A DNA stretch of 64,000 nt from Bacteroidaceae bacterium (GTDB lineage Bacteria > Bacteroidota > Bacteroidia > Bacteroidales > Bacteroidaceae), in assembly GCA_017548075.1 (NCBI GenBank), contig JAFYNL010000034.1:24191-88190 (forward strand). The letters run 5' to 3'. Position numbers and translations under genes: made by a program. The notes beneath the pieces are model-generated. The model was not told the origin of the DNA. It did not search any database and saw only the letters and a program-made list of their open reading frames with translations. Positions 794 through 61,157 of the stretch are shown in pieces. The first letter of the stretch is position 1. Every line of letters starts with the position of its first letter.

Positions 794-835
794 CGCTAAA
801 CAGTAAACCGTAAACAGTAAACAGTAAACTAACCA
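794..835. repeat. Heptamer block (cgctaaa cagtaaa ccgtaaa cagtaaa cagtaaa ctaacca)
   Basis: 7-nt periodic imperfect tandem repeat read directly. It is the reverse complement of the block at 20285-20319. Confidence 0.8.
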
Positions 836-838
836 GCC

Positions 839-949
839 ATGAAAAAGAACAACATCTGGGAACTCATCCTCAAGGTCATCGTCGCCGCCATAACGGCAGC
901 CTTGACCGCCATCACAACTACAAGTTGTATGGGCAGAGGCCCATTCTAA
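839..949 (+). CDS. 36-aa hydrophobic peptide with a C-terminal SCMG motif (resembles the 'smalltalk' small proteins annotated next to HU-like genes in Bacteroidales)
   Basis: Not in the ORF track because it is under 60 aa. ATG at 839, TAA at 947-949. Translation MKKNNIWELILKVIVAAITAALTAITTTSCMGRGPF. It lies directly downstream of the HU-like gene and is followed by a terminator. The family name is recalled from memory. Confidence 0.5.
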   Translation: MKKNNIWELILKVIVAAITAALTAITTTSCMGRGPF

Positions 950-990
950 GTGAAGAGTGAAGAATCAAGCGCAGGCGGAACTAAAAGGAG

Positions 991-1022
991 AGCCTCGAAT
1001 TAACTTTCGGGGCTTTCTTTTT
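991..1022 (+). terminator. Rho-independent terminator
   Basis: 9-bp stem agcctcgaa / ttcggggct (one U-G pair), 6-nt loop, then ttctttttt. Confidence 0.65.
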
Positions 1023-1053
1023 GTGGTTTTTTTGTAGTTTGAAAAAAATGTTG

Positions 1054-1061
1054 TATCTTTG
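1054..1061 (+). promoter_or_regulatory. Bacteroidetes -7 promoter box TAnnTTTG (tatctttg)
   Basis: Motif lies 28 nt upstream of the ATG at 1090. Confidence 0.5.
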
Positions 1062-1089
1062 CAGCGTGAATGATTAAATTAGCAGTATT

Positions 1090-1332
1090 ATGGCAAATGC
1101 AGCAACAATGCCTACACAGAGGCAGATATTAGTAAATGTTGAGGACGTGTCGATGCTGAAGGATATAAGAAAAGCCATCAGTATGCTAAAAGGTGTGGGA
1201 AAGATAACTGTCCCCCGCCGTCGCAAACTCTACTCGTCATATGAGTTGTCACTCCGCGACCTTGACGAAGGACGAGTGTATAAATACGATAGTCTGGACG
1301 ACCTCATCAAGGAAATAGAGAATGAAGACTAA
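1090..1332 (+). CDS. Putative antitoxin of a type II TA pair (partner of the YafQ-like toxin)
   Basis: 80 aa, acidic C-terminus, overlaps the downstream toxin gene by 11 nt. No confident family assignment from sequence alone. Confidence 0.6.
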   Translation: MANAATMPTQRQILVNVEDVSMLKDIRKAISMLKGVGKITVPRRRKLYSSYELSLRDLDEGRVYKYDSLDDLIKEIENED

Positions 1333-1618
1333 GTACGAGCTGCGCATTACTGGCGAGTGCAAGCAGAACTTGAAGCTTTGCAAGAAACGTGGCTTGCCGA
1401 TGGGCGAACTATGGGCAATCGTTGCGAAATTGCTCAATGGCGAAAAGCTTGATGAGAAATACCAGCCTCATCAGCTTCTCGGAAACCGTAGGGGGCAGTG
1501 GGAGTGCCATATCCAACCCAACTGGTTGCTCATTTGGGAGCAGCATGACCGCGAACTCGTTCTAATCATGGTGAATACCGGCACACATTCCGACCTCTTC
1601 GGAAAGAATAAACGATAA
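1322..1618 (+). CDS. yafQ: Type II toxin-antitoxin system toxin, YafQ family (RelE/ParE superfamily mRNA interferase)
   Basis: 98 aa. HQLLGNRRGQWECHIQPNWLLIW...TGTHSDLFG aligns with E. coli YafQ (H.L.G..KGYRDAHVEPDWILIY...TGTHAALFG). Confidence 0.85.
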   Translation: MKTKYELRITGECKQNLKLCKKRGLPMGELWAIVAKLLNGEKLDEKYQPHQLLGNRRGQWECHIQPNWLLIWEQHDRELVLIMVNTGTHSDLFGKNKR

Positions 1619-1643
1619 CATAGTAGCTTCCTAGCTTCTAGAC

Positions 1644-1674
1644 AGCCTCGAACACGTTTCGGGGCTTTCTTTTT
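1644..1674. terminator. Terminator hairpin, near-identical copy of the one at 991-1022
   Basis: agcctcgaa-cacgt-ttcggggct followed by ttcttttt. It sits between the convergent genes ending at 1618 (+) and 1673 (-). Confidence 0.6.
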
Positions 1675-3223: not shown

Positions 3224-3245
3224 CGAATTATCGTGTTAGTTGTTG

Positions 3246-3253
3246 CAAAGATA
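3246..3253 (-). promoter_or_regulatory. -7 promoter box (tatctttg on the minus strand)
   Basis: 22 nt upstream of the ATG at 3223 (minus strand). Confidence 0.45.
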
Positions 3254-3262
3254 TGAAATAAT

Positions 3263-3297
3263 TATGGACTATGAACTATGAATTATGAACTTTTTTT
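3263..3297. repeat. Heptamer block (ttatgga ctatgaa ctatgaa ttatgaa ctttttt)
   Basis: Read directly; lies in the divergent intergenic region. Confidence 0.75.
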
Positions 3298-3299
3298 CT

Positions 3300-3307
3300 T
3301 ACCTTTG
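3300..3307 (+). promoter_or_regulatory. -7 promoter box (tacctttg)
   Basis: 8 nt before the ATG at 3316 and 17 nt before the alternative ATG at 3325. Confidence 0.4.
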
Positions 3308-3315
3308 CACAGAAA

Positions 3316-4395
3316 ATGAGAACTATGAGATATAGATTATTGTCTATCGTCTGTTGTCTGTTGACGGTTGTCACAAGCTTTGCTCAGCCTCGCTTTGTGG
3401 CCGATACGGACATCAAGAAGGTGGGCGAAGTGGAGTTCCAGGTGCCGCGGCAGTTCAAACTTGGCTTTACCAACAAGGGCTCGGAGCCTCTCATCATAGA
3501 GGATGTGAAGGCTTCGTGCGGCTGCCTGGAGGTTGCGTTCCCCAAAACACCCATCGCGGCAGGCTCTCGCGGCGAGATAACCCTCACCTACGACGCCAAG
3601 CTCTTGGGCTCGTTCTATAAAGAGGTGGAGGTGATGACAAACGCTTCCGACAAACCCGCATACATCGCCATTCAAGGCACCGTGGTGACCGAAGTGCACG
3701 ACTACAGCGACGAGTTCCCCATCGACCTCGGCAATGTGCGGCTCGTGACGAACACCGTGGAGTTTGAAGACGTGAACATGGGCGACAAGCCGACCGCAGA
3801 ACTGCGCATCCTGAATGCCGACCGTACGGCTTTCCGCCCCGAACTGATGCACTTGCCTCCATATCTCTCGGCAGAATACCTTCCCGAGGACATTCCCGCA
3901 GGCAAGACTGGCACCATCCGACTCACCCTCGATAGCGAGAAACTCAGCGGACTCGGGCTCAACCAGACAAGCGTCTACCTCTCCCGTTACATGGGCGACA
4001 AGATAGGCGAAACAAACGAGATACTCGTCTCGGCCATCCTCTTGCCAAGCTTTGCCGACATGGGCGAAGAAGCACTCGCAATGGCTCCGGAACTGGGCAT
4101 CAGCGAGTCGTCCGTCGACATGGGAGCTTTCAACGGGAAGAAAACCCTCACCCATACTATCCTCCTCACCAACACAGGCAAGAGCGACCTCCACATCCAT
4201 GCAGTTCAGGTCTTCAACAAAGCCATCAGCGTGGACATCGCCAACAGAACGATTCGCCCGGGCAAGACTACGAAGCTGAAGATAACCGTCAGCGCACACT
4301 ACATGGGCAAAAGCAAAGGCCGAATGCGCGTCATGCTCATCACAGACGCTCCCAAACAAGCGAAGCAATACCTCAATATTGAAATAAGAGAATAA
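3316..4395 (+). CDS. DUF1573 domain-containing secreted protein
   Basis: 359 aa. Signal peptide, then FTNKGSEPLIIEDVKASCGCLEVAFPK, the hallmark ASCGC motif of DUF1573. A second similar Ig-like module follows (LLTNTGKSDLHIHAVQV). Confidence 0.8.
   Translation: MRTMRYRLLSIVCCLLTVVTSFAQPRFVADTDIKKVGEVEFQVPRQFKLGFTNKGSEPLIIEDVKASCGCLEVAFPKTPIAAGSRGEITLTYDAKLLGSFYKEVEVMTNASDKPAYIAIQGTVVTEVHDYSDEFPIDLGNVRLVTNTVEFEDVNMGDKPTAELRILNADRTAFRPELMHLPPYLSAEYLPEDIPAGKTGTIRLTLDSEKLSGLGLNQTSVYLSRYMGDKIGETNEILVSAILLPSFADMGEEALAMAPELGISESSVDMGAFNGKKTLTHTILLTNTGKSDLHIHAVQVFNKAISVDIANRTIRPGKTTKLKITVSAHYMGKSKGRMRVMLITDAPKQAKQYLNIEIRE
3340..3374. repeat. Heptamer block (ttgtcta tcgtctg ttgtctg ttgacgg ttgtcac), antisense of the GACAACA family, inside the signal-peptide codons
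   Basis: Read directly; encodes LLSIVCCLLTVVT. Confidence 0.8.
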
Positions 4396-4430
4396 GAAAT
4401 TAAGAAAATAAGAGATTAAGAGATTAAGAA
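4383..4430. repeat. Octamer block (aataagag aataagaa attaagaa aataagag attaagag attaagaa)
   Basis: Read directly; spans the stop codon at 4393-4395. Confidence 0.8.
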
Positions 4431-4481
4431 GATTTCGGCATCTTTTCTTATTTTCTACATTTCACATTATCTACATTCATC

Positions 4482-6398: not shown

Positions 6399-6402
6399 GA
6401 GT

Positions 6403-6490
6403 GCAAAAACTTAACGTGGTTAAATCGCAAACTTAACGTGTTACGTTGGCAAACTTAACGTGCTTAGTTGGCAAACTTAACGTGGAGCGT
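6403..6490. repeat. Array of 4 tandem ~22-bp units (gcaaacttaacgtgttacgttg type, reverse orientation on the + strand)
   Basis: gcaaaaacttaacgtggttaaatc / gcaaacttaacgtgttacgttg / gcaaacttaacgtgcttagttg / gcaaacttaacgtggagcgtt. The array almost exactly fills the cmk-ispH intergenic gap. Confidence 0.9.
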
Positions 6491-6491
6491 T

Positions 6492-10126: not shown

Positions 10127-10905
10127 TAGATACGCACAGTCATATCTACGAGCCCGTCTTCAGTGCCGACCGCGAAGAGGTCATCATGCGGGCAAAGCAG
10201 GCAGGAGTTGAATACATTCTCTTGCCCAACATCAACGCCGAAAGCATAGAGCAGATGCTCGATATGTGCCGCCGTAATCCTGGTTATTGTTTCCCCATGA
10301 TGGGCTTGCATCCCGAAGATATCGAGGAGAATTACAAGCAAGTCCTGGCCGACATGAAAACTCTGTTGGAAGTTCCCAATCATCCTTACATTGCAATTGG
10401 AGAAGTTGGGCTCGATTATTATTGGGACAAAACCAAAGTCAAAGAGCAGGAAGAAGTCTTTCGCACACAGATTGAATGGGCCATCGAATATCATTTGCCT
10501 CTCATGATTCACTCGCGCTCAGCACATCGCCAACTCGTTACAGCCATATCGGAATATAAGGACGAAGACCTTTCCGGCGTCTTTCATTGCTTTGGAGGCT
10601 CAAAGGAAGAGGCACAGGAGTTGCTTCAGTTCCCTAACTTCATGCTTGGCATCGGAGGCGTTGTCACTTACAAGAACAGCCATCTGGCAGAGACTCTGAC
10701 ATCGGTTCCTTTGGAGCGCATCGTGCTTGAAACAGACTCCCCCTACCTCACTCCAGTTCCCTATCGAGGCAAGCGAAACGAGAGCGCCTATGTGGTCGAA
10801 GTCCTGCGCAAAGTAGCACAAATATATAATGTAAGCGAGCAAGAGGCAGAAAGCATCACAAACTCCAACGCGAAGCGCATATTTCCGTGCCTGAACTCAC
10901 TATAA
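10123..10905 (+). CDS. TatD-family metal-dependent hydrolase/DNase
   Basis: 260 aa. MIDTHSHIY start, EVGLDYYW, MIHSR and ETDSPYL motifs. 4-nt overlap with the upstream gene. Confidence 0.9.
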   Translation: MIDTHSHIYEPVFSADREEVIMRAKQAGVEYILLPNINAESIEQMLDMCRRNPGYCFPMMGLHPEDIEENYKQVLADMKTLLEVPNHPYIAIGEVGLDYYWDKTKVKEQEEVFRTQIEWAIEYHLPLMIHSRSAHRQLVTAISEYKDEDLSGVFHCFGGSKEEAQELLQFPNFMLGIGGVVTYKNSHLAETLTSVPLERIVLETDSPYLTPVPYRGKRNESAYVVEVLRKVAQIYNVSEQEAESITNSNAKRIFPCLNSL

Positions 10906-11038: not shown

Positions 11039-11126
11039 GGAGAGATGCTCGAGTGGCTGAAGAGGCACGCCTGGAAAGCGTGTGACCGGCAAAACTGGTT
11101 CGCGAGTTCGAATCTCGCTCTCTCCG
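11039..11126 (+). tRNA. tRNA-Ser (anticodon GGA)
   Basis: 88 nt folded by hand: acceptor GGAGAGA/TCTCTCC, anticodon arm CACGC-CTGGAAA-GCGTG, long variable arm, T-arm GCGAG-TTCGAAT-CTCGC. Confidence 0.92.
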
Positions 11127-12023: not shown

Positions 12024-12079
12024 AGATTAGAGATTAGGGATTAACTATCTTTCTTAACTCTTAATTCTTAACTCTTAAT
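12024..12079. repeat. Two adjacent heptamer blocks (agattag agattag ggattaa; ctatctt tcttaac tcttaat tcttaac tcttaat)
   Basis: Read directly in the exbB downstream spacer. Confidence 0.75.
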
Positions 12080-13724: not shown

Positions 13725-13767
13725 ATGTTACAACAGGACACATCTTCCAACTAGGCTCAGTTAAAAT

Positions 13768-13855
13768 GCAAACGTAACACGTTATGATTGCAAACGTAAC
13801 ACGTTAAGTTTGCCAACGTAACACGTTAAGTTTGGAAACTTCACAGGCGATGTTT
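13768..13855. repeat. Array of ~4 tandem 22-bp units (gcaaacgtaacacgttaagttt, forward orientation)
   Basis: gcaaacgtaacacgttatgatt / gcaaacgtaacacgttaagttt / gccaacgtaacacgttaagttt / ggaaacttcacaggcgatgttt (decaying). Confidence 0.9.
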
Positions 13856-15133: not shown

Positions 15134-16021
15134 ATGGCAGAACAGAATTGGGCAGGAACAACATACGGCAACAATTGGATGCACAAGTGGCTCATCCGTT
15201 TGCTTCGCTTCATCGACACACGGATTTTGTACCTCTTTGTCGCCATCTTCATCATTCCTGTCTGCCTGATTCTGAACCCAAGCCGAGGCATTGCCTATCG
15301 TTTCTTCCGCAAACGCATGGGGTATGGTAGGCTGAAATCTGCTTGGAAGACCTATGTCAATCATTGCCTCTTCGGTCAAGTTGTTGTGGATAAGTTCGCA
15401 ATGTATGCAGGCAAAAAGTTCAAAGTGGAGATTGAAGGCTACGAAAACTTTGCTCGTCTTGCAGCCAAGAAAGAGGGCTTCGTACAACTGAGCGCACACA
15501 TCGGCAACTACGAGATTGCAGGCTATACACTCGTTTGCGAGAATAAGCGAATAAATGCACTTGTTTATGCTGGCGAAAAGGAATCCGTAATGAGGAATCG
15601 CGACAAGATGTTTGCCGACACGAATATCAGCATGATTGCCATCAACCCAGATATGAGCCATCTCTTCGAGATAGACAAAGCGCTGGAAGAAGGCGAGATT
15701 GTGAGTATGCCTGCTGACCGCATCAGTGGTTCGCCCAAGTTTATTGAGCATGATTTTCTCGGAGCAAAGGCAAGGTTCCCGCTTGGTCCTTTCTCTGTCG
15801 CCACAATACGAAGCCTAGATGCCCTCGCTATAAATGTCATGAAGACCTCACTTACGAGCTATAAGATATATGTTACTCCCCTGCCCTACGACAAGACGAC
15901 TTCGCGTCAGGAACAGATAAAGCAACTTTCTGGGGCATATGTTGCTGAACTTGAAAAGCGAGTTCGGCAATATCCGACACAATGGTATAACTACTTTGAG
16001 TTTTGGAACGAGAATGATTAG
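15134..16021 (+). CDS. LpxL/HtrB-like lysophospholipid (lipid A-type) acyltransferase
   Basis: N-terminal TM helix and an HX4E catalytic motif (SAHIGNYE). The start was taken at MAEQNW; the ORF track begins at 15107. 8-nt overlap with the next gene. Confidence 0.75.
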   Translation: MAEQNWAGTTYGNNWMHKWLIRLLRFIDTRILYLFVAIFIIPVCLILNPSRGIAYRFFRKRMGYGRLKSAWKTYVNHCLFGQVVVDKFAMYAGKKFKVEIEGYENFARLAAKKEGFVQLSAHIGNYEIAGYTLVCENKRINALVYAGEKESVMRNRDKMFADTNISMIAINPDMSHLFEIDKALEEGEIVSMPADRISGSPKFIEHDFLGAKARFPLGPFSVATIRSLDALAINVMKTSLTSYKIYVTPLPYDKTTSRQEQIKQLSGAYVAELEKRVRQYPTQWYNYFEFWNEND

Positions 16022-17654
16022 CGTTTTATCCACCAACATAACCTCGCCTCTTGGCTTCACTACAGAACAGAATTATCAGGCTGTCCTGACAGGAACCTCT
16101 GCTCTGAAGCATTACGAAGGCATGTGGGGACTGCCCGAACCTTTCGCGGCTTCCCTTTTTAGCGAGGAGCAGAAAGCGGCTCTAGCCCTTGATGGATTTA
16201 CGCGTTTTGAGTCTCTTGCCATTCGTTCTGTCCAAGAAGCACTCTCCCATATTCAATTGGATGTTGCTTCGTCGAGAGTCGTTCTCATTCTGAGTACCAC
16301 AAAAGGAAACGTTGAATCGCTCGATAACCCTGATCAAGAGGGACACTATTTCCCATCAAAAGCCGCACAAACTATAGCGAAAGCTCTTGGGATAAGCACG
16401 ATGCCTATTGTGGTTTGCAACGCTTGCGTTTCTGGTCTATCTGCCCAACTGCTTGCCAACAACTTGCTTTCTGCAGGCCTTTATGACTATGCAATTGTGA
16501 TAGGAGCTGAAGTACAGAGCAAGTTCATCGTTTCAGGTTTCCAATCGCTCAAAGCCGTTTCTGATGAGCCTTGCCGTCCCTTCGACATAGAACGCATAGG
16601 TCTTAACTTGGGAGAAGCAGCTGCAACCATCATCTTCGCAAAGACTTCTTCCAAAGAAAGCTGGTGTCTTGTGGATGGAGCCACCTGTAATGATGCTTTC
16701 CACAACATTTCTCCCTCGCCAAAAGCAGACGGTTGCACAAAGGCCATCGAAGCAGTAATGAGGGATAGGGACAAGTCAAAACTCGCAACAATCTGCGTTC
16801 ACGGAACTGCAACTCTGTATAACGACCAGATGGAATCTGTGGCTATTCAGAAGGCGGGACTCTCGGACATTCCTCTCTCGGCACTCAAAGGATATTACGG
16901 ACACACAATGGGAGCAGCCGGAGTGCTTGAAACAATATTGACTATGCGAGCCACAGACGATGGAGTTGTCCTTGGTTCGAAAGGCTTTACAGAGGTTGGT
17001 GTTAGCGGAAAGATCTGCATCAGTAATGAGATTCTGCAAACAAACAAGACATCTTTCCTGAAACTTCTCTCAGGTTTTGGCGGAAGCAATGTGGCGGCAC
17101 TCTTTTCAAAGACAACGGACAACAGACAATTGACAACTGACAAGAAACTCCACAAAGCTCACACAATCAGGTTATCTTCTGAGGAAGGAAAAACTTTGAC
17201 AGACATTTACAAGCAACAAATCGGGGATTATCCCAAGTTCTACAAGATGGATATCCTGACTCGCTTGGCTTTCGTGGCTTCCGAACTCCTGATAAAAGAC
17301 ATGGGAGAAACGCAAGAAGAGCCTGCTATCATTCTCTTCAACCACTCCTCCTCGATTGTAGCTGACAGCCAATTCTTGAGGACAATCTGTGATGCGGAAG
17401 ACTTCTTCCCCAGCCCTTCTGTCTTCGTTTACACATTACCTAATATAACTACAGGCGAGATTGCCATTCGTCTTCACTTCCAAGGCGAGACCTCATTCTA
17501 CATTCTTCCTGAGAAAGACGAGGCCTTGATGCAACAAATACTTGAGGCGACTCTGAACGCGACAAACGCCAAAAGTGCCATTAGCGGCTGGATTGATGCC
17601 GAATCTGACACTAAATTCGAGTGCGAAATATCAAATTACATCATACAAGACTAA
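16014..17654 (+). CDS. Beta-ketoacyl synthase (Cys-His-His) fused to a C-terminal CLF-like half-domain
   Basis: Active-site NACVSG, VHGTATLYND and YGHTMGAAG motifs. After GFGGSNVAALF comes a TTDNRQLTTDKK linker, then a roughly 165-aa domain with FPSPSVFVYTLPNITTGEIAI (Ketoacyl-synt_2-like). Start taken at MISVLS. Confidence 0.82.
   Translation: MISVLSTNITSPLGFTTEQNYQAVLTGTSALKHYEGMWGLPEPFAASLFSEEQKAALALDGFTRFESLAIRSVQEALSHIQLDVASSRVVLILSTTKGNVESLDNPDQEGHYFPSKAAQTIAKALGISTMPIVVCNACVSGLSAQLLANNLLSAGLYDYAIVIGAEVQSKFIVSGFQSLKAVSDEPCRPFDIERIGLNLGEAAATIIFAKTSSKESWCLVDGATCNDAFHNISPSPKADGCTKAIEAVMRDRDKSKLATICVHGTATLYNDQMESVAIQKAGLSDIPLSALKGYYGHTMGAAGVLETILTMRATDDGVVLGSKGFTEVGVSGKICISNEILQTNKTSFLKLLSGFGGSNVAALFSKTTDNRQLTTDKKLHKAHTIRLSSEEGKTLTDIYKQQIGDYPKFYKMDILTRLAFVASELLIKDMGETQEEPAIILFNHSSSIVADSQFLRTICDAEDFFPSPSVFVYTLPNITTGEIAIRLHFQGETSFYILPEKDEALMQQILEATLNATNAKSAISGWIDAESDTKFECEISNYIIQD
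17111..17145. repeat. Heptamer block (gacaacg gacaaca gacaatt gacaact gacaaga) inside the KS gene
   Basis: Read directly; encodes the TTDNRQLTTDK linker. Confidence 0.85.
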
Positions 17655-17656
17655 AT

Positions 17657-17917
17657 ATGGAACAGTTAATCAACGACTTGAAATTACAAATCAAAGAAGC
17701 CCTCAACCTCGAGGAACTATCGTTAGAAGACTTCGACGAAAACGCACCTCTCTTCGGAGAAGAAGGCATCGGCCTCGATTCTATCGACATTCTCGAGATA
17801 ATCGTACTGCTTGAGAAGAACTACGGCATTCGCCTTGCTAACCCGAAAGAAGGGAAAGCTATCTTCCAAAGCGTAAAGACAATTGCTGAATACGTTCAGG
17901 CAAACCGCAAGAAGTAA
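17657..17917 (+). CDS. Acyl carrier protein
   Basis: 86 aa with the phosphopantetheine site GLDSIDILE. Start taken at MEQLIN. Confidence 0.88.
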   Translation: MEQLINDLKLQIKEALNLEELSLEDFDENAPLFGEEGIGLDSIDILEIIVLLEKNYGIRLANPKEGKAIFQSVKTIAEYVQANRKK

Positions 17918-17925
17918 AGGAGAAA

Positions 17926-19686
17926 ATGAGTCTCGCAGTTACAGGTTTCGGCATTATTTGCGCGATTGGAAATGACGCACAAAGTGTTCTTCGTTCCCTT
18001 CAAGAAGGCAGAACGGGGATAGGAGCCATGCGTTATCTGCAATCGAGCCACAAGGAACTTCCCGTCGGAGAAGTGAAACTCTCAAATGATGAGATGAAGC
18101 GAATGCTCGGACAGGATGAGAAGTCCATCATCAGCCGCACAGTTTTGATGGGAGCAATCGCTATTCGTCAGGCTTTGGAGCACGCCAATCTTGACCTGAA
18201 AGGCAAGCGAATCGCCCTCATCAACGGCACAACTGTAGGCGGAATGGATATTACGGAGCACTACTTCATGCAGATGAAGGAGGATGATGCCCTATTGCCT
18301 GTCCTTGAGAAGCACGACTGTGGAAGTTCCACTCGCGAAATGGCCGACCTTGCAGGCCTGAAGGATGCAGAAGTTTGCACAATCTCGACGGCCTGTTCAT
18401 CTGCAGTAAATGCCATTATTCTTGGGTCGGAAATGCTCAAGAACAACGAGGCAGACATCATCATAGCTGGCGGCACAGAGGCTTTGAGCTTGTTCCACCT
18501 CAACGGATTCAATTCCCTGATGATTCTCGACAAAGAGCAATGCCGTCCTTTCGACAAGAATCGAGCAGGACTGAATCTGGGCGAAGGAGCCGCTTTCGTT
18601 GTGCTTCAGAAGCCTGAGAACCTAACAAACGAGCAAAATCCTCTCGCCTACATTCGCGGTTATGGCAATCGTTGTGATGCCTTCCACCAGACTGCTTCGT
18701 CCGAAGATGGTGAAGGAGCCTTCCTTGCGATGAGTGAAGCCCTGAAAATGAGCGGGTTAGAGCCTCAAGACATTCAATATATAAATGCTCACGGAACAGG
18801 GACTCCCAATAATGATGCAAGCGAAAGTGCGGCTATTCGACGAGTTTTCGGAGAGAAAATTCCACCCGTCTCGAGCACAAAAGGCTTTACAGGGCACACG
18901 ACTTCGGCTTCTGGTTCGATTGAGGCAGTCATTTGCATCCTGTCTCTTCTCAAGGACTTCGTGCCCGCAAACCTTGGTTGGAAGGAGCAAGACGAAGCCT
19001 GCATCAAGCCGACGACGGACAACAGACAACAGACAACGGAGAACATTCTTTGCAATTCCTTTGGCTTTGGAGGGAATGATTCGGCAGTTGTGATAAGCAA
19101 AAACGCTAGCCCCTCTAACTCCTCACAAAAGGAGCAGAACCTCGAAGTTTGTACTTTGGGAGAGGCTATTGTTGAAGATGTGGAGCAACTTCAAGAACTT
19201 CGAGAGTTCATTTCTCCAGGCGAGGCCCGAAGGATGGGCAAACTCATGAAGGCTGCCACCATTACTTCGCTCAAAGCTTTGCAGGCTGCAGGAATCGAGA
19301 CTCCTGATGCCATCATTACTGCAACCGCTTTTGGAATGCTCGAAACGAGTGAGAAGTTTATGGTCGATATGTTGGAAAATGGCGAGGAAACCTTGAGTCC
19401 CACCCTCTTCATGCAAAGCACGCACAATACTTTGAGTTCCGCAATCGCCATTCGAACCAAATGTCATGGCTACAATATGACTTATTCGCAAGGCTCCGAC
19501 TCGCTTGAATGGGCACTTCGCGACGCGCGAAGGCTGATAGAAACGGGCAAAGCGAAGACAGTTCTGGTAGGTTTTCACGACGAAGCAACCCCAACGTTCC
19601 AGGAGTTCTTCCGTCGTATGGAAAAGCCCATTCCATCGATGCTTTACTCTCGAAGCATAGTGCTTGGGAGAAGACCTGCAGAGTAG
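17926..19686 (+). CDS. Beta-ketoacyl-ACP synthase (FabF/FabB-like, Cys-His-His) fused to a chain-length-factor-like domain
   Basis: 586 aa. STACSSAVNAI, NAHGTGTPNNDASE, GHTTSASG and NSFGFGGND motifs. The C-terminal ~190 aa carry SPTLFMQSTHNTLSSAIAI, typical of the APE-type CLF (PF13723-like). Confidence 0.88.
   Translation: MSLAVTGFGIICAIGNDAQSVLRSLQEGRTGIGAMRYLQSSHKELPVGEVKLSNDEMKRMLGQDEKSIISRTVLMGAIAIRQALEHANLDLKGKRIALINGTTVGGMDITEHYFMQMKEDDALLPVLEKHDCGSSTREMADLAGLKDAEVCTISTACSSAVNAIILGSEMLKNNEADIIIAGGTEALSLFHLNGFNSLMILDKEQCRPFDKNRAGLNLGEGAAFVVLQKPENLTNEQNPLAYIRGYGNRCDAFHQTASSEDGEGAFLAMSEALKMSGLEPQDIQYINAHGTGTPNNDASESAAIRRVFGEKIPPVSSTKGFTGHTTSASGSIEAVICILSLLKDFVPANLGWKEQDEACIKPTTDNRQQTTENILCNSFGFGGNDSAVVISKNASPSNSSQKEQNLEVCTLGEAIVEDVEQLQELREFISPGEARRMGKLMKAATITSLKALQAAGIETPDAIITATAFGMLETSEKFMVDMLENGEETLSPTLFMQSTHNTLSSAIAIRTKCHGYNMTYSQGSDSLEWALRDARRLIETGKAKTVLVGFHDEATPTFQEFFRRMEKPIPSMLYSRSIVLGRRPAE
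19011..19045. repeat. Heptamer block (gacgacg gacaaca gacaaca gacaacg gagaaca) inside the KS-CLF gene
   Basis: Read directly; encodes TTDNRQQTTEN just before the NSFGFGG motif. Confidence 0.85.
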
Positions 19687-19688
19687 TT

Positions 19689-19777
19689 GCCAAACATAAC
19701 ACGTTAAAATGGCAAACGTAACACGTTAACTTTGCAATCATAACACGTTAACTTTGCCAACGACACTAGGGTTGTTT
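19689..19777. repeat. Array of ~4 tandem 22-bp units (forward) separating the two halves of the lipid cluster
   Basis: gccaaacataacacgttaaaatg / gcaaacgtaacacgttaacttt / gcaatcataacacgttaacttt / gccaacgacactagggttgttt. It begins 3 nt after the stop at 19686. Confidence 0.9.
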
Positions 19778-19885
19778 TGAAACATAGCTGGCTTCGTTTA
19801 TAACCTCTGCATGACAAACAAGTAATGATAGGCTCGAAAACGGGCTTTTTTGTTAAGCGGATTTTGTAATTTGAATTTGTTGTCG

Positions 19886-19893
19886 TATCTTTG
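19886..19893 (+). promoter_or_regulatory. -7 promoter box (tatctttg) for the second cluster operon
   Basis: 19 nt upstream of the ATG at 19913. Confidence 0.5.
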
Positions 19894-19912
19894 TAGCCAT
19901 AATTATAATGAT

Positions 19913-20263
19913 ATGCAACTACTACCTTTAGCCGTACTTCAAAGCCTATTGTATGTAGGCGGACAGGTTTTCTTGAAACTCGCCTTAGGCAAAATGGAGC
20001 CTTTCGGCTGGAATTGGCAGTTCTGGAGCTCAGTCTTTTCGAACTGGCAGTTTGCCGTTTGTGGTCTCCTTTTCTGTTCAGGAACAATCCTCTGGCTCTA
20101 CATCATCAAGCATTTCCCCTTCAGCATGGCCTATCCAATGGCTTCGCTGAGTTATGTTTTCGCCATGATAGCGGCAATGTTGGTGTTCCACGAAGACGTG
20201 AGTCTGACGAGATGGTTGGGCATTTTGCTCATTATGGCTGGGTGTTACTTTATAGCGAAATAA
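19913..20263 (+). CDS. Small 4-TM EamA/SMR-like (ArnE/ArnF-like) membrane transporter subunit
   Basis: 117 aa from MQLLPLAVLQ, hydrophobic, with a C-terminal LGILLIMAGCYFI typical of half-size DMT proteins. Confidence 0.6.
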   Translation: MQLLPLAVLQSLLYVGGQVFLKLALGKMEPFGWNWQFWSSVFSNWQFAVCGLLFCSGTILWLYIIKHFPFSMAYPMASLSYVFAMIAAMLVFHEDVSLTRWLGILLIMAGCYFIAK

Positions 20264-20267
20264 GAAG

Positions 20268-20849
20268 ATGAAACGATATCTGTTGTTTACCGTTTACTGT
20301 TTACTGTTTACTGCTTTGGTTGCGCAAGGGTTGAGCGAACAGAAAATCATCCAGAAGATGACGGTTGCGGCTGAGAATATCAAGACCGTTCAATGCAACT
20401 TCACGCAGACAAAACGCATGAAAATGCTGAGTAAAGAGCAGGTTTCGCAAGGCAAAATGTTCTGTCAGCAACCCGATAAACTGCGATGGGAGTACACAAG
20501 CCCGCGTTCGAGCACTCTTATCTTGGACGGAACGAGTGTTCGTCTTCTGAAAGGTGATTCGGATAATGGAAGCCGAAACAAGTTTATGGGCGAAATGGCA
20601 AGACTGATAATGAATAGTGTTGCCGGCAAATGTCTGACCGACAGTAAAGCCTTCCAAGTCTCTGCAAAAGAGTTGCCAACAGAATATATCGCGACTCTTC
20701 TCCCTCTAAAAAAGGAGATGAAACGGCTCTATACCAAGCTCGTTTTGCATTTCGACACGAAACAATCGACTGTAACAAAGGTTGAGTTGCACGAAAAGAA
20801 TGGCGACCAAACCATAATTGACCTGCATGACATCCAAATCAACAAGTAA
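20268..20849 (+). CDS. LolA-like outer-membrane lipoprotein carrier family protein
   Basis: 193 aa. Signal peptide, then F.Q.K....L......G.....PDKLRWEY, the typical LolA-like signature. Confidence 0.75.
   Translation: MKRYLLFTVYCLLFTALVAQGLSEQKIIQKMTVAAENIKTVQCNFTQTKRMKMLSKEQVSQGKMFCQQPDKLRWEYTSPRSSTLILDGTSVRLLKGDSDNGSRNKFMGEMARLIMNSVAGKCLTDSKAFQVSAKELPTEYIATLLPLKKEMKRLYTKLVLHFDTKQSTVTKVELHEKNGDQTIIDLHDIQINK
20285..20319. repeat. Heptamer block (gtttacc gtttact gtttact gtttact gctttgg) inside the signal-peptide codons
   Basis: Read directly; encodes FTVYCLLFTAL. Confidence 0.8.
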
Positions 20850-29149: not shown

Positions 29150-29230
29150 TGCCCAGAACAGGAATCGAACCTGCACGCCTCGCGGCACGCGCACCTGAAA
29201 CGCGCGCGTCTACCATTCCGCCACCTGGGC
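29150..29230 (-). tRNA. tRNA-Leu (anticodon CAG)
   Basis: 81 nt. GCCCAGG acceptor, D-arm GCG-GAATGGTAGA-CGC, anticodon loop TTCAGGT (identical to E. coli Leu-CAG), long variable arm, T-loop TTCGATT. Confidence 0.9.
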
Positions 29231-29283
29231 AAGAAAGAAAAAAAACGAGCCTTGATGCGTCAAGCACCTTGAGCCTCGTTTTG

Positions 29284-29356
29284 AGCGGAAAACGAGACTC
29301 GAACTCGCGACCCCAACCTTGGCAAGGTTGTGCTCTACCAACTGAGCTATTTCCGC
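29284..29356 (-). tRNA. tRNA-Gly (anticodon GCC)
   Basis: 73 nt. GCGGAAA acceptor, anticodon arm CAACC-TTGCCAA-GGTTG, T-loop TTCGAGT. Confidence 0.92.
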
Positions 29357-29367
29357 CTGACATTTTG

Positions 29368-29449
29368 TGAAGAGGAGGAGACTCGAACTCCCACGCCTCG
29401 CGGCACTACCACCTCAAAGTAGCGCGTCTACCAATTCCGCCACCTCTCC
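29368..29449 (-). tRNA. tRNA-Leu (anticodon GAG)
   Basis: 82 nt. GGAGAGG acceptor, anticodon arm CTACT-TTGAGGT-GGTAG, long variable arm, T-loop TTCGAGT. Confidence 0.9.
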
Positions 29450-32778: not shown

Positions 32779-32808
32779 AGAGTGAAGAATGAAAAATGAA
32801 GAATTACT
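32774..32808. repeat. Heptamer block (aatgaag agtgaag aatgaaa aatgaag aattact) spanning the trpB stop and trpE start
   Basis: Read directly; contains the TGA at 32776-32778 and the ATG at 32789. Confidence 0.8.
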
Positions 32809-47963: not shown

Positions 47964-48071
47964 CCAAACAACTGCAGTTACGATGGCAAACATAACACGT
48001 TAACTTTGCAAACGTAACACGTTAAGATTGGCAACGTAACACGCTACGTTTGCAATCGTAACTGGGGTCAT
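47964..48071. repeat. Array of ~5 tandem 22-bp units (forward) starting 6 nt after the stop
   Basis: ccaaacaactgcagttacgatg / gcaaacataacacgttaacttt / gcaaacgtaacacgttaagattg / gcaacgtaacacgctacgttt / gcaatcgtaactggggtcat. Confidence 0.9.
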
Positions 48072-54679: not shown

Positions 54680-54687
54680 CAAAGGTA
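54680..54687 (-). promoter_or_regulatory. -7 promoter box (tacctttg on the minus strand)
   Basis: 27 nt upstream of the ATG at 54652. Confidence 0.5.
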
Positions 54688-54733
54688 CAAAAAATAATTG
54701 AACTTTGAGCATTGAACATTGAGAATTATTTCG

Positions 54734-54741
54734 TACCTTTG
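54734..54741 (+). promoter_or_regulatory. -7 promoter box (tacctttg)
   Basis: 9-15 nt upstream of the candidate ATGs at 54751 and 54757. Confidence 0.4.
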
Positions 54742-54750
54742 CAGAAAAAG

Positions 54751-58037: not shown

Positions 58038-58055
58038 ACTTCGCCAGTGTCGTTC

Positions 58056-58120
58056 GCGAACATAACGTGCTGCGTTGGGCAACTTAACATGCTGCGTTGG
58101 GCATCGCAGCTGCCTGTGTT
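58056..58120. repeat. Array of ~3 diverged 22-bp units (reverse orientation)
   Basis: gcgaacataacgtgctgcgttgg / gcaacttaacatgctgcgttgg / gcatcgcagctgcctgtgtt. Confidence 0.7.
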
Positions 58121-58308
58121 TATCACTAAGTCAAAGAATCTTTTTGGATAAGGATGCGCCGCTGCGTGTCCTCATGTATATGTTGTATGCCGCGTCCGGC
58201 ATTGTGTTTTCGAATCACGTTGCGAAGGTACGACATCTTTGTTGCGGTCTACGAATAAACGTGCAATTATTTAAAAACTTTTTGAGTTTCCCAGACTCTG
58301 CACTCACC

Positions 58309-58466: not shown

Positions 58467-58601
58467 AGCGTTGAATGGCAACCAAAAATTCTCGATGAAA
58501 TGGGCGATTTTTGCAGCTTTGGATTTCTTCATCGAATAAGGTCTTCTGACTTTTTTAAGAAAAAAGTTGAGAAAGATGCGGCAAGATTGCCAAAAATGTT
58601 G

Positions 58602-58609
58602 TATCTTTG
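58602..58609 (+). promoter_or_regulatory. -7 promoter box (tatctttg)
   Basis: 42 nt upstream of the ATG at 58652. Confidence 0.5.
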
Positions 58610-58651
58610 CGGCACTAAATTCAACAGGAAACTCACAAAAACAACAAAAAT

Positions 58652-59251
58652 ATGGCAGAAACAAGAAAAATCAAGCGTGCTCTGGTGTCCGTTTTCCACA
58701 AAGACGGGCTGGAAGAGATACTGAAAACGCTCCATCAGGAGGGCGTTGAACTGCTTTCCACAGGCGGCACACAGGCTTTCATCGAAAGTCTCGGCATTCC
58801 CTGCAGGAAAGTTGAGGATGTGACCACTTATCCCAGCATTTTGGGCGGCAGAGTGAAGACTTTGCACCCGAAAGTGTTCGGCGGCATCCTTGGTCGTAGA
58901 GAAAATGAAGGCGACCAAGAGCAGATGAAGCAGTACGAAATCCCCGCCATCGACCTCGTTATCGTTGACCTTTATCCTTTCGAGGACACAGTGGCAGCAG
59001 GAGCAAGCGAGGCAGACATCATCGAGAAGATTGACATTGGCGGCATCAGCCTCATCCGTGCTGCGGCAAAGAACTTCCGCGACGTCATCATCGTGCCCTC
59101 AAAGGCAGAGTACAAGCCCCTGCTCGACCTTCTGAACAAGCAAGGAGCCCAGAGCGAATTGGCCGACCGCAAGTGGTTCGCCACCCAAGCCTTCGGCGTC
59201 AGCAGCCACTACGATACAGCCATCCACGAGTGGTTTGCAGCCAACAAATAA
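58652..59251 (+). CDS. purH: IMP cyclohydrolase (MGS-like N-terminal domain of PurH) only; the AICAR transformylase domain is absent
   Basis: 199 aa. RALVSVFHKDGL, LLSTGGT, GRVKTLHPKV, DLVIVDLYPF and DIGGISLIRAAAKN align with PurH residues 1 to about 199. The stop comes right after AFGVSSHYDTAIHEWF, the domain boundary. Confidence 0.8.
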   Translation: MAETRKIKRALVSVFHKDGLEEILKTLHQEGVELLSTGGTQAFIESLGIPCRKVEDVTTYPSILGGRVKTLHPKVFGGILGRRENEGDQEQMKQYEIPAIDLVIVDLYPFEDTVAAGASEADIIEKIDIGGISLIRAAAKNFRDVIIVPSKAEYKPLLDLLNKQGAQSELADRKWFATQAFGVSSHYDTAIHEWFAANK

Positions 59252-59286
59252 AATCGTAAATAGTAAATCGTCAAATCGTAAATTAC
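59251..59286. repeat. Heptamer block (aaatcgt aaatagt aaatcgt c aaatcgt aaattac) between purH' and mreB
   Basis: Read directly; begins at the last base of the purH' stop codon (59249-59251). Confidence 0.8.
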
Positions 59287-59290
59287 ATAG

Positions 59291-60310
59291 ATGAACTGGT
59301 TTTCCCTTAACAAAGAAATAGCGATGGACCTCGGAACGGCCAACACCATCATCATTTGCGATGGTAAGATTGTCGTTGACGAGCCCAGCGTAGTAGCCCT
59401 CGACCGCCGCACAGAACGCATGATTGCAGTCGGCGACAAGGCTAAGATGATGTACGAAAAGACCAACCCGGAAATTCGCACTATCCGTCCTCTTCGCGAC
59501 GGTGTGATTGCCGACTTCAACGCTTGCGAGCAGATGATGCGCGGCCTCATCAAGATGGTGCATTCAGGCAACCGCCTCTTCTCTCCCTCGCTGAAGATGG
59601 TGATTGGCGTGCCCAGCGGCAGTACTGAAGTGGAGCTTCGTGCCGTTCGCGATAGTGCAGAGCATGCAGGTGGACGCGAAGTCTACCTCATCTTCGAACC
59701 CATGGCAGCAGCCATCGGTATCGGACTCGACGTGCTTGCTCCAGAAGGCAACATGATTGTCGATATAGGTGGTGGTAGCACAGAGATTGCCGTCATTTCG
59801 CTTGGTGGCATCGTGGCCGACAAGAGCCTCCGCATCGCTGGTGACGAACTGACTGCCGACATTCAAGAATACATGAGCCGTCAGCACAACGTCAAGGTCA
59901 GCGAACGTATGGCAGAACGCATCAAGATTCACGTTGGAGCCGCTATGACCGACCTCGGCGAAGATGCTCCAGACGATTATGTTGTTCATGGTCCGAACCG
60001 CATCACAGCCCTTCCAATGGAGGTTCCCGTATGCTATCAGGAGATTGCACACTGCCTGGAGAAGACCATCGCAAAGATTGAGACAGCAGTCCTCAGCGCA
60101 CTCGAAGAAACACCCCCAGAACTCTATGCCGACATCGTGAAGAACGGCATTTGGCTGACAGGTGGCGGTGCTCTGCTTAGAGGTCTCGCAAAGCGTCTCA
60201 CAGACAAAATCAACATCGAGTTCCATGTGGCCGAAGACCCCTTGCACAGCGTTGCGAAGGGCACAGGCGTAGCACTGAAGAACATCAACAACTTCGCATT
60301 CTTGATGTAG
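59291..60310 (+). CDS. mreB: Rod shape-determining protein MreB
   Basis: 339 aa. IAMDLGTANT, EPMAAAIG and DIGGGSTEIAV actin-fold motifs. Confidence 0.95.
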   Translation: MNWFSLNKEIAMDLGTANTIIICDGKIVVDEPSVVALDRRTERMIAVGDKAKMMYEKTNPEIRTIRPLRDGVIADFNACEQMMRGLIKMVHSGNRLFSPSLKMVIGVPSGSTEVELRAVRDSAEHAGGREVYLIFEPMAAAIGIGLDVLAPEGNMIVDIGGGSTEIAVISLGGIVADKSLRIAGDELTADIQEYMSRQHNVKVSERMAERIKIHVGAAMTDLGEDAPDDYVVHGPNRITALPMEVPVCYQEIAHCLEKTIAKIETAVLSALEETPPELYADIVKNGIWLTGGGALLRGLAKRLTDKINIEFHVAEDPLHSVAKGTGVALKNINNFAFLM

Positions 60311-60332
60311 TCAAACCTCGACTACGACAGCT

Positions 60333-61157
60333 ATGCACGATTTCATCGAGCGCATAACAGCCTACGTCCACTGGGCGCTCTTCCTCATTCTGGAAGCGTT
60401 CAGTGGATTCCTGCTTTTCCAGTACAACCATTATCAAGGCAGCATCTGGTTTACCCAAGCCAACACAGTTGTCGGCATAGTGCACGAATGGGAAGCAAAG
60501 GCACTCTCGTACCTGAGAATGCCGGCTGAGAATGCAGCGCTCGTTCGCCGCAACATCATCCTGCAGCAACAACTCGATGAGCTGAGGCACAAAGCAAATG
60601 TCGACACTTCAATGGTCAATGATCAATGGTCAATGGTCAATGACAGCATGAGGCTCATTCCTGCTCGCATCATCGACAACAGCGTTAGGAAGCGCGACAA
60701 TATGATTGTCATCGACGTTGGTAGCGAAGACGGAGTTGCCCCAGAAATGGGTGTGTTGAGCGGCACAGGCGTTGTAGGCATCGTCAGCGGCGTTACGCCT
60801 CATCATGCGCTCGTGATGTCCATCCTCAACAGCCACAGCAGCATCAGTTGCCGCTTGCGAGGAACGGAATACTTCGGCTACCTGAAGTGGAAAGGCGGCA
60901 GACCTTTGCGAGCCTATATGGACGATGTTCCGCGCCACGCTCACATCGAGAAAGGCGACATAGTAGAGACAAGCGGCTTCAGCAACGTCTTTCCTGCAGG
61001 CATCTTCCTCGGCAAAGTGGCTGAAATCAAGAACAGTAGCGACGGACTTGCCTACGAACTCGAAATTCTCCTGAGCACAGATATTGCGAACCTCAGGCAC
61101 GTTAACGTCATCAACAACCTCATCAAAGAAGAACTCGACTCCCTCAAAGCACAATGA
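60333..61157 (+). CDS. mreC: Rod shape-determining protein MreC
   Basis: 274 aa. N-terminal TM, coiled coil, and a C-terminal beta domain (VVGIV...SSISCRL..., ETSGFSNVFPAGIFLGKV). Confidence 0.88.
   Translation: MHDFIERITAYVHWALFLILEAFSGFLLFQYNHYQGSIWFTQANTVVGIVHEWEAKALSYLRMPAENAALVRRNIILQQQLDELRHKANVDTSMVNDQWSMVNDSMRLIPARIIDNSVRKRDNMIVIDVGSEDGVAPEMGVLSGTGVVGIVSGVTPHHALVMSILNSHSSISCRLRGTEYFGYLKWKGGRPLRAYMDDVPRHAHIEKGDIVETSGFSNVFPAGIFLGKVAEIKNSSDGLAYELEILLSTDIANLRHVNVINNLIKEELDSLKAQ
60610..60644. repeat. Heptamer block (caatggt caatgat caatggt caatggt caatgac) inside mreC
   Basis: Read directly; encodes SMVNDQWSMVND between the coiled coil and the beta domain. Confidence 0.85.

Follow-up and report, generated by a model that had tools for sequence, protein, structure and literature searches.

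A stretch of 64,000 nucleotides from the genome of a Bacteroidaceae bacterium (assembly GCA_017548075.1, contig JAFYNL010000034.1, forward-strand positions 24,191 to 88,190; called the window below, with positions counted from its first letter) carries a family of short blocks, each built of about five imperfect direct repeats of seven nucleotides. They lie at gene borders, for instance upstream of mreB and at the junction of trpB and trpE, and inside genes, among them mreC, lolA and two ketosynthase genes. A preliminary description, made from the sequence alone, had listed at least a dozen such blocks as one architectural family with differing units and had attributed them to a generating mechanism rather than to selection on any one motif. 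Here, the blocks are compared with shuffled sequence, with loci from other genomes (numbered L001 and so on) and with known repeat systems.

Repeat Blocks of the Window

Copy numbers and coordinates of arrays were obtained with Tandem Repeats Finder (TRF). In the window the program reported 16 arrays with a period of 7 nt, of which 12 reach 3.5 copies or more, compared with very few in 100 dinucleotide-preserving shuffles (mean 1.02 for all arrays; mean 0.02 and maximum 1 for those of at least 3.5 copies). Each of the blocks listed before was recovered at, or a few bases from, its described position (Table 1), direct reading of the letters gives about five imperfect units at each of these sites, and the view of a single family with differing units is upheld; three arrays that had been overlooked (those starting at 54696, 12024 and 4452) were added. 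An assembly artefact was rejected on the ground that independent metagenome-assembled genomes (MAGs) share these blocks, as do the isolates Prevotella sp. tc2-28, Bacteroides rodentium JCM 16496 and B. propionicigenes NSJ-90. A search of the window against Rfam at the gathering thresholds matched four tRNAs only (one alone at 11039–11126 and a three-gene cluster on the minus strand at 29150–29449), and the blocks are covered by no known RNA family. A literature search for the motif strings AAATCGTAAAT and AAATTGTAAAT, their complements, and heptamer or tandem repeats of Prevotella found no description of these blocks.

Several blocks straddle stop or start codons, as the preliminary description had observed. 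The block at 32774 holds both the trpB stop codon (32776–32778) and the trpE ATG (32789) and is followed by the hairpin CCCCCTAAAGGGGG at 32809–32822. The block at 59251, whose first triplet is the stop codon of a purH-like gene, ends 7 nt before the mreB ATG at 59291 and belongs to a family of the form (AAATNGT)3-C-AAATNGT-AAAT, and the 8-nt array at 4383 spans the stop codon of a DUF1573 gene (4393–4395). The second 8-nt array stops 4 nt short of the MeaB ATG at 4482. Just 3' of the exbB stop lies the short AGATTAG array, which is longer in the relatives L041 and L050; the adjoining block at 12045 ends 12 nt before the ATG at 12092 and is orthologous in L037–L050, where the number of units varies from 1.5 to 5. 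The block at 794, finally, is placed between a hairpin at 765–783, located after the stop of an open reading frame (ORF) at 290–751, and the ATG at 839 of a 36-aa ORF, and positions 751–839 form a module of stop, hairpin, heptamer block and start.

Table 1. Heptanucleotide and related octanucleotide arrays of the window, with coordinates, TRF calls and strand.
Feature	Position	TRF call	Strand
CAGTAAA block	794–835	797–829, TAAACAG ×4.7	+
TATGAAC block	3263–3297	3263–3291, ×4.1	.
TTGTCTG block, complement of CAGACAA	3340–3374	3340–3372, ×4.7	+
8-nt variant, unit AATAAGAG	4383–4430	4383–4429, ×5.9	+
8-nt array, unit TTTCTACA	4452–4477	×3.2	+
Short AGATTAG array	12024–12043	×2.9	+
TCTTAAC/T leader-type block	12045–12079	12052–12078, TCTTAAC ×3.9	+
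GACAACN block	17111–17145	17111–17143, GACAACT ×4.7	+
GACAACA block	19011–19045	19018–19045, ×4.0	+
GTTTACT block, complement of CAGTAAA	20285–20319	20284–20313, TGTTTAC ×4.3	+
CAGACAA block	28983–29017	28984–29015, AGACAAC ×4.6	+
AATGAAG block	32774–32808	32774–32804, ×4.4	+
ATTGAAC/TTTGAGC block	54696–54727		.
AAATCGT leader block, pattern 7-7-7-8-7 nt	59251–59286	59251–59283, ×4.6	+
CAATGGT block	60610–60644	60609–60642, TCAATGG ×4.9	+

Three of the neighboring genes have peculiarities of their own. The 36-aa ORF directly 3' of the block at 794 (839–949, MKKNNIWELILKVIVAAITAALTAITTTSC...) has a lipoprotein-like signal, and after its stop stands a 2.1-copy AGTGAAG repeat (949–963). If trpE starts at the ATG at 32789, an assignment that is uncertain, its first approximately 14 residues (MKNEELLPLKGAGG) come from the block and the hairpin, and conserved TrpE sequence begins at about AYKYHT (window 32789–32860). 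The purH-like gene (58652–59251) encodes only 199 aa, comprising an MGS domain and the first 59 positions of AICARFT_IMPCHas, and corresponds to the IMP-cyclohydrolase-type N-terminal half alone. A truncation of purH by the block at 59251 was rejected, because the 199-aa form is conserved in sister strains (co-specific contigs) and relatives.

Distribution and Positional Classes

The window comes from an uncultured, Prevotella-like bacterium of the rumen. The closest relatives of its MreC and of its second ketosynthase (KS2, gene 17926–19686) were found only in rumen or hindgut MAGs labelled Prevotellaceae or Bacteroidaceae, with a top match of 89%, and the window's species itself is present in metagenome contigs of ENA at 99.8–99.9% identity. 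Relatives with at least 67% KS2 identity contain 0.14–0.39 arrays of at least 3.4 copies per kb, whereas nearly all more distant Bacteroidales are without arrays in 10–20 kb. The clade in total has 144 arrays in 866 kb (0.17 per kb) with a median of 4.6 copies, which agrees with the about five units per block described before. By the crude ORF calls used for loci from other genomes, 47% of the 144 arrays are non-genic, while only 12.5% of the sequence is non-coding; with a genic share of 53%, the density per base is about six times higher outside genes.

That the blocks are lineage-specific and absent from orthologues in distant genera points to a generating process as their probable origin rather than to selection on one motif. 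To this extent the earlier proposal holds; it does not account for the small repertoire of units, nor for the at least two intergenic families that are strictly oriented and positioned before starts, one of them conserved across Bacteroidales. Three positional classes exist: leader blocks in sense orientation 3–12 nt 5' of a start codon, often after a GC-rich hairpin; promoter blocks 5–10 nt before a −7 box; and genic blocks.

Length Cap and Stability

In the clade, the length histogram of period-7 repeats is bimodal, with a chance peak at 14–18 bp, a real mode at 30–34 bp and a sharp drop beyond 38 bp, unlike that of periods 9 and 12, typical of coding repeats, where lengths decay monotonically. 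The TRF lengths of the arrays have an interquartile range of 28–33 bp, and more than six copies are found in 5 of 133 (4%), rare longer arrays reaching 9.6 and 13.6 copies. A comparison set was obtained by scanning for GACAACN in 3.7 copies, with one genome per species, and yielded arrays also in Cyanobacteria, Acidobacteriota, Planctomycetota, Flavobacteriia and others. Half of those found outside the Bacteroidales (53 of 106) exceed six copies and some have 20–40, in contrast to the clade (5 of 133; Fisher p ~1e-17). Since GACAACN is arrayed in other phyla as well, the phenomenon belongs to a known class of bacterial heptanucleotide repeats, and the cap at about five units is what is peculiar to this lineage. 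Analogous blocks of 8- or 9-nt units in about 4.6–5 copies lie in more distant Prevotella lineages at the same intergenic site upstream of mreB (L028 at about 10880–10905, and L030), and a block of this kind was also noticed in the mreC linker of L124; the conserved quantity may be copy number rather than base length.

With a period of 7 nt, gain or loss of one unit inside a gene would shift the reading frame, as the preliminary description had pointed out. Two contigs from other samples, of 10,710 nt (99.9% identity, 10 mismatches) and 4,298 nt (99.8%, 8 mismatches), align to the window without gaps and cover the arrays at 54696, 59251 and 60609 as well as one 22-bp repeat; with no change of unit number in such closely related strains, phase variation is therefore not supported. 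The genes that carry arrays are all intact, and the number of units persists between species even where synonymous sites are almost saturated. Upstream of mreB, the block retains its 7-7-7-8-7 nt pattern, the additional base falling in the same unit, and the linker block of the first ketosynthase (KS1, gene 15939–17654) has five units in at least nine species. A length change is seen in L023, which has a 22-nt duplication. Judged from consensus assemblies, this stability would not fit hypermutable contingency loci. A metagenome scan for intermediate strains returned no same-species contig, the top match having 91% MreC identity.

Unit Repertoire and Cassette Behavior

Unit classes were defined independently of rotation and strand, and array pairs were compared within a locus, where two arrays cannot be orthologous. 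In this scheme 43 classes accommodate the 144 clade arrays, about 15 of them holding most arrays, and same-class pairs within a locus number 24 against 1.7 expected for letter-shuffled units. The likeness between sites includes internal irregularities: the GACAACA blocks at 28984 and at 3340 both have GTCAACA as their second unit, the third unit of TATGAAT blocks is repeatedly TGYGAAT, and a terminal AATT(T)ACT/GCT is common to AATGAAG blocks. Thirteen species have the complete block (AAATNGT)3-C-AAATNGT-AAAT in front of mreB; it also stands before KS2 in L043, L044 and L049, and is found at L047:18308. Because such irregularities are shared at non-orthologous sites, the blocks behave as discrete cassettes of approximately 31–36 bp, with 4–5 units drawn from a small heptamer repertoire, and not as open-ended, slippage-prone microsatellites.

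At the junction between the gene of the putative acyl carrier protein (ACP) and KS2, three kinds of alleles are present, namely an empty spacer of 8–10 nt (window, L037, L038 and L042), a GC-rich hairpin alone, and a hairpin with a block; blocks are therefore gained as units at intergenic sites. Terminal inverted repeats and target-site duplications were not found, as the 131-copy profile of the AAATNGT matches listed has no conserved termini beyond the 33-nt core and filled ACP–KS2 sites contain no duplication. The stacking of target-site duplications by repeated transposon insertion and excision was rejected as a source, since it predicts steps of +7 nt and no equal-length replacement.

Some heptamer arrays occur as inverted pairs (GAAAGTT.../...AACTTTC; AGTGAAG.../...CTTCACT) that form long hairpins, in part in frame within coding regions. 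They were noticed in the mreC linker (L114 at about 330–450, L125 and L017), in KS2 (L048:4223–4320, L046 and L050), at L016:5080–6153 and in the purH–mreB spacer (L001, L010, L019 and L036).

Leader Blocks

Translation in Bacteroidota proceeds without Shine–Dalgarno pairing, and in organisms lacking Shine–Dalgarno sequences S1 is thought to bind the region upstream of the start codon. An exact scan for AAATNGTAAATNGTCAAATNGTAAAT found at least 120 stretches, in Prevotella, Bacteroides, Paludibacteraceae and Prolixibacteraceae; the isolates among the matches listed, to which the AAATNGT counts in this paragraph refer, are B. rodentium, B. propionicigenes and Prevotella sp. tc2-28. In these matches, 56 of 132 AAATNGT blocks lie in sense orientation with the ATG of an ORF of at least 60 aa at −3 to 8 nt from their 3' end (mode 3–8 nt), and one does so in antisense. 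Within −6 to 15 nt, sense and antisense placements number 29 and 4 for AAATCGT, 20 and 2 for AAATAGT, 13 and 2 for AAATTGT, and 5 and 0 for AAATGGT; TCTTAAY blocks are sense-only before starts (11 of 25, against 0 antisense, in the same interval). The 131-copy profile contains one more unit upstream, beyond which the information falls to about zero on both sides, and thereby delimits a discrete element of approximately 33 nt. Its degenerate position is A, C or T, whereas G, which would create an AUG, occupies 22 of 393 positions. This scarcity matches the AUG depletion that Baez et al. report for Bacteroidetes initiation regions, in which they also find upstream adenines at −3, −6 and −11 to −14 and suspect S1 as the reader (PMC6847099).

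The 40 nt 5' of the mreB ATG are 80–95% identical between the window and seven species, compared with 44–60% at the fourfold-degenerate sites of mreB. A hairpin with a C-rich and a G-rich arm, located after the upstream stop codon, precedes the leader block in the window (751–839), at mreB (L005, L007, L020 and L023) and at KS2 (L043, L044, L046 and L049). Folding of the arrays as RNA gave a minimum free energy (MFE) of zero in 63% of cases, with shuffled arrays nearly as unstructured. As arrays are only marginally less structured than their shuffles, freedom from RNA structure was dropped as the main argument for the blocks in general. In the mRNA, the leader blocks would act as A/U-rich, AUG-poor and weakly structured segments for ribosome loading. 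They would occupy roughly positions −8 to −41 counted from the start codon, the region presumed to be bound by S1.

Promoter Blocks

The Bacteroidetes −7 box TAnnTTTG starts −3 to 17 nt from the array end in 48 of 402 arrays of all loci, against 6.8 expected, with the offsets concentrated at 5–10 nt. In the window, two unrelated divergent gene pairs share one promoter geometry. The first has a reverse −7 box CAAAGATA at 3246–3253 and a forward box TACCTTTG at 3300–3307, the spacer being filled by the TATGAAC block; the second has CAAAGGTA at 54680–54687 and again TACCTTTG at 54734–54741, with the ATTGAAC/TTTGAGC block in between. Both reverse boxes have the form CAAAGnTA, and exactly 46 nt separate the boxes of each pair; in two relatives this spacing is 44–46 nt. 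Blocks of this class would supply the −33 and upstream region with a fixed geometry.

Genic Blocks

Genic arrays are located in signal peptides, linkers and loops, and these copies are confined to permissive protein segments in which a polar or hydrophobic low-complexity peptide is tolerated. The preliminary description had placed T-rich copies in signal peptides and A-rich copies in polar stretches, which is borne out. The block at 3340 encodes the h-region LLSIVCCLLTVV of the DUF1573 protein and that at 20285 the h-region LLFTVYCLLFT of LolA. Polar stretches are encoded at 17111 (TTDNRQLTTDK, linker of KS1; present in at least nine clade species and absent outside the clade), 19011 (TTDNRQQTTEN, loop of KS2), 28983 (IDNSQQTTENRP, near the C-terminus of a GH97 protein) and 60610 (SMVNDQWSMVND, MreC linker). 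The cluster at 15939–20849, which contains three of the blocks, comprises the first ketosynthase, an 86-aa ORF (the putative ACP, by position), a fusion of ketosynthase and chain-length-factor-like type, an EamA-like membrane protein and the LolA-like protein, and resembles an aryl-polyene or lipid biosynthesis cluster.

It had been suggested that lack of the blocks in orthologues of other genera would indicate insertions. More distant genera do lack them, and insertions occur at intergenic sites and, as +21 nt, in some genes, but several genic blocks match the ancestral length exactly. In mreC, the window and L102 have near-identical flanks around a 37-nt patch that differs at equal length, and L107 and L108 carry an orthologous array with TCAATTG instead of TCAATGG units inside the ancestral 96-nt slice. 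The LolA signal peptide has 21 codons in the array-less L046–L048 as well as in the TGTTTAC, TTGTCTG and TATTGGT alleles, three unit types in one register; TGTTTAC and TTGTCTG are set apart by three transitions that recur in each unit. The KS2 loop has 12 codons, as in array-less orthologues, while KS2 alleles of three other lineages have seven more (21 nt). The GH97 block stands in place of the unrelated sequence present in the 52–54% identical GH97 matches in L042, L047 and L049, and is one codon shorter than that sequence. The blocks therefore change by concerted substitution at unaltered length and occasionally by steps of 21–22 nt (L023).

Hairpins and 22-bp Repeats beside the Blocks

Hairpins with a C-rich and a G-rich arm, of the form CCCC(T)..loop..(A)GGGG, stand after stop codons in the window at 765–783, 2890–2909 and 32809–32822. 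In relatives they recur in the KS2 loop (L040, L042, L044 and L049), the mreC linker (L016, L023, L036, L104, L119 and L132) and the purH–mreB spacer (L005, L007, L020 and L023), and include in-frame copies within coding loops and linkers, some at ancestral length. They are often situated directly 5' of a heptamer block and have a REP-like look. A general enrichment of GC-rich hairpins was rejected, with 10 in the window against 12.4 in shuffles, and they are of note only as the C-arm/G-arm type beside blocks.

A second repeat family consists of 22-bp tandem repeats in two to four copies (for example TGCAAACGTAACACGTTAAGTT) at 10–58, 6407–6485, 13767–13839, 19691–19761, 47977–48062 and 58051–58103. 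All these arrays are intergenic, most of them starting 5–20 nt past a stop codon, and 40 were counted in 512 kb of the clade. A short dyad, AACGT..ACGTT, is found in each unit, and long stems are formed by complete arrays. The family is similar to the 23-nt minisatellite in the BrickBuilt MITE of Porphyromonas gingivalis (PMC4596501).

Comparison with Known Repeat Systems

The nearest counterparts are the long simple sequence repeats (LSSRs), with units of 5–11 nt among which heptanucleotides predominate (Mrazek, Guo and Shah, 2007, as summarised in PMC4679880). Like these, the blocks are tandem 7-nt direct repeats that greatly exceed chance expectation, lie mostly between genes, have a patchy phylogenetic distribution and occur in bacteria other than host-adapted pathogens; they differ by the cap at about five units, the stability between strains, the small repertoire with block homology between sites, and the in-place replacement of genic sequence. 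The short tandemly repeated repetitive (STRR) sequences of cyanobacteria, as Mazel et al. are said to have described them in 1990, comprise a few heptamer families, each recurring at numerous places in a genome, for the most part between genes and in some cases within them. This likeness extends to the unit itself, as GACAACN arrays were found in Nostoc, Calothrix, Anabaena and Dolichospermum; however, the GACAACN arrays of other phyla, cyanobacteria included, are long-tailed with up to 20–40 copies, and the phylum is a different one. STRR sequences are not known to occupy a set place ahead of start codons or −7 boxes.

Phase-variable contingency loci are made up of simple repeats in Haemophilus and Neisseria, and the ctxAB promoter of Vibrio cholerae contains TTTTGAT repeats. 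As in these systems, short tandem repeats are found in promoters, in 5' regions and within reading frames, where a 7-nt unit would shift the frame, but the blocks have no unit-number polymorphism in near-identical strains, their unit number is conserved across species, and the genes concerned are mreC, lolA, two ketosynthase genes and those of the GH97 and DUF1573 proteins. In Borgs, the units of genic repeats are multiples of three. Borg repeats are described as rapidly evolving, recently formed and of independent origin at each site (PMC9879509), and resemble the blocks in being pervasive tandem repeats of one lineage, both intergenic and genic, the genic ones giving low-complexity or disordered segments; the blocks described here have 7-nt units, are old and conserved, and draw on a repertoire common to many sites.

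Direct repeats of TAACTGA occur in marine Beggiatoaceae, some Cyanobacteria and five Bacteroidetes, in 2–6 copies, mostly forward and a few nt upstream of starts, and were proposed to bind the post-transcriptional factor S1, Csp or CsrA (MacGregor, 2015; PMC4679880). The AAATNGT and TCTTAAY blocks share the forward placement just before starts. They differ in that a single unit is used there and many here, and TAACTGA is neither among the arrays of the window nor among the 40 most frequent of the clade's 43 classes of unit; in addition, the 33-nt block has an 8-nt irregularity, and promoter and in-frame genic classes exist. With REP/BIME sequences, Rickettsia palindromic elements and the BrickBuilt MITE minisatellite (PMC4596501), the blocks have in common that short dispersed repeats follow operon stops, lie in frame in some cases and form mosaics with hairpins; unlike these, they are direct repeats rather than palindromes, lack terminal inverted repeats and target-site duplications, and are oriented toward the downstream start.

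Interpretation and Alternatives

We interpret the blocks as length-capped, family-structured heptanucleotide repeats of the LSSR/STRR type that were much amplified in one rumen Prevotellaceae clade, with intergenic families serving as leader and promoter modules and genic copies as tolerated by-products, a combined reading to which we give roughly even chances. The comparisons show two intergenic position classes apparently under selection and no sign of short-term instability. Template switching in a 7-nt register, or else short-patch conversion, would both create new blocks and homogenise them; either could rewrite about 35 nt at unchanged length, with occasional slippage of 21–22 nt, and the genic copies would be tolerated by-products of this block-generating process.

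Several points weigh against this interpretation. Every functional step in it is inferred; template switching or conversion is a proposal and gives no reason for the five-unit cap, and positional calls rest on crude ORF calls in the loci. The AAATNGT statistics stem from loci selected by the motif, though not by its position or orientation, and the sample is not genome-wide. The stability test used consensus assemblies of two other strains and is a weak test of polymorphism. With a mean MFE of −0.86 kcal/mol for arrays and −1.00 kcal/mol for mononucleotide shuffles, low structure is mostly an effect of composition, and TCAATGG and TTGTCTG arrays fold more strongly than their own shuffles; RNA structure is no strong argument, because shuffled arrays are almost equally unstructured. 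Many species are without the mreB block, and a role as leader gives no reason for an exactly phased block with an irregular C over any A-rich leader, nor does it explain the genic blocks. Array-bearing mreC alleles, moreover, deviate from the ancestral length by −9 to +42 nt, and equal-length replacement could reflect selection on linker length after +21/−21 events.

The blocks could instead be ordinary, neutral slippage microsatellites that act as hypermutable contingency loci by shifting frames or promoter spacing, a view we regard as unlikely. Heptamers are the commonest simple repeats of 5–11 nt in many bacteria, with slippage as the proposed source (Mrazek, 2007, as summarised in PMC4679880), and the +21-nt KS2 alleles, the duplication in L023, the rare arrays of 9.6–13.6 copies and the range of 1.5 to 5 units at the exbB junction are all in keeping with it. 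Slippage does not, however, lead one to expect lengths peaked at 4.6 units with a sharp cap instead of a geometric distribution, the lack of indels between 99.8–99.9% identical strains, an irregular 8-mer and a unit number conserved despite saturated synonymous sites, a limited vocabulary with block-level structure common to non-orthologous sites, or blocks in core envelope and cell-shape genes (mreC and lolA) and two ketosynthase genes, often without change of length. Spread of miniature mobile elements of MITE or REP type by a transposase or RAYT-like enzyme, perhaps together with the GC-rich hairpins, as selfish DNA kept where harmless, would account for the 33-nt block that has the same irregularity at non-orthologous sites and across genera (at least 120 stretches), for the empty and filled ACP–KS2 alleles, for the repeated association with REP-like hairpins and for the inverted array pairs forming long hairpins, some of them genic. 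This too seems unlikely, to the same degree: the block ends fade into the flanks, with neither terminal inverted repeats nor target-site duplications, genic blocks replace sequence rather than add to it, and strict sense orientation, the 3–8-nt spacing to the ATG and conservation above that of synonymous sites point to host-level selection. The window yielded no transposase, although no systematic search for transposase or RAYT genes was made there.

That the arrays are binding sites of an oligomeric or repeat-domain protein, a transcription factor or nucleoid protein reading direct heptamer repeats as ToxR reads the TTTTGAT repeats at the cholera toxin promoter, would suit the promoter class, with its arrays 5–10 nt upstream of −7 boxes, the fixed 46-nt spacer of both divergent promoters in the window and the fixed number of units. 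We nevertheless hold it to be very improbable, given at least 12 unrelated unit sequences in one genome, the many blocks inside coding regions and leader blocks that keep to one strand and to a set position with respect to the ATG; the scarcity of G at the degenerate position finds its explanation in the avoidance of AUG in the RNA. A dedicated, templated writing of patches, in which about 35 nt are overwritten at constant length by five heptamers from a small repertoire and all block classes are its products, is quite improbable in our view. The agent might be an oligonucleotide made by a reverse transcriptase or primase, or a specialised template-switching polymerase. Such a process agrees with patches as long as the sequence they replace between near-identical flanks, with a block length that is constant whatever the unit, with the small repertoire, with the density jump in one clade and with units that change in concert while length and register stay the same. 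Yet exact conservation of length is seen in just three or four independent events, other alleles differ, length selection with slippage of +/−21 nt could mimic the pattern, and the AAATNGT family is also present in lineages that do not have a high block density; no enzyme candidate turned up, although no search was aimed at one. A composite account, in which a templated mutational or mobile process of the clade overwrites patches of approximately 35 bp in this way and a subset such as (AAATNGT)3-C-AAATNGT-AAAT was recruited across Bacteroidales as a heptad-phased ribosome-loading leader that replaces the Shine–Dalgarno interaction, is distinctly unlikely.

Implications

At about one block per 6 kb, the blocks affect the calling of gene starts in rumen MAGs, as at the trpB/trpE junction and through N-terminal extensions that come from blocks and hairpins. 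A periodic sequence can take the place of around 35 nt in a conserved protein linker, loop or signal peptide without altering its length, which simple slippage models do not predict; equal-length replacement combined with concerted change of units implies either strong selection on length or an unrecognised process of template switching or conversion. The leader blocks bear on the question of how ribosomes of Bacteroidota find start codons. As a discrete, phased, strand-specific and AUG-purged block of 33 nt that stands 3–8 nt before starts in many genera, they provide a concrete and portable candidate for binding by S1 and the 30S subunit and for expression design in Prevotella and Bacteroides.

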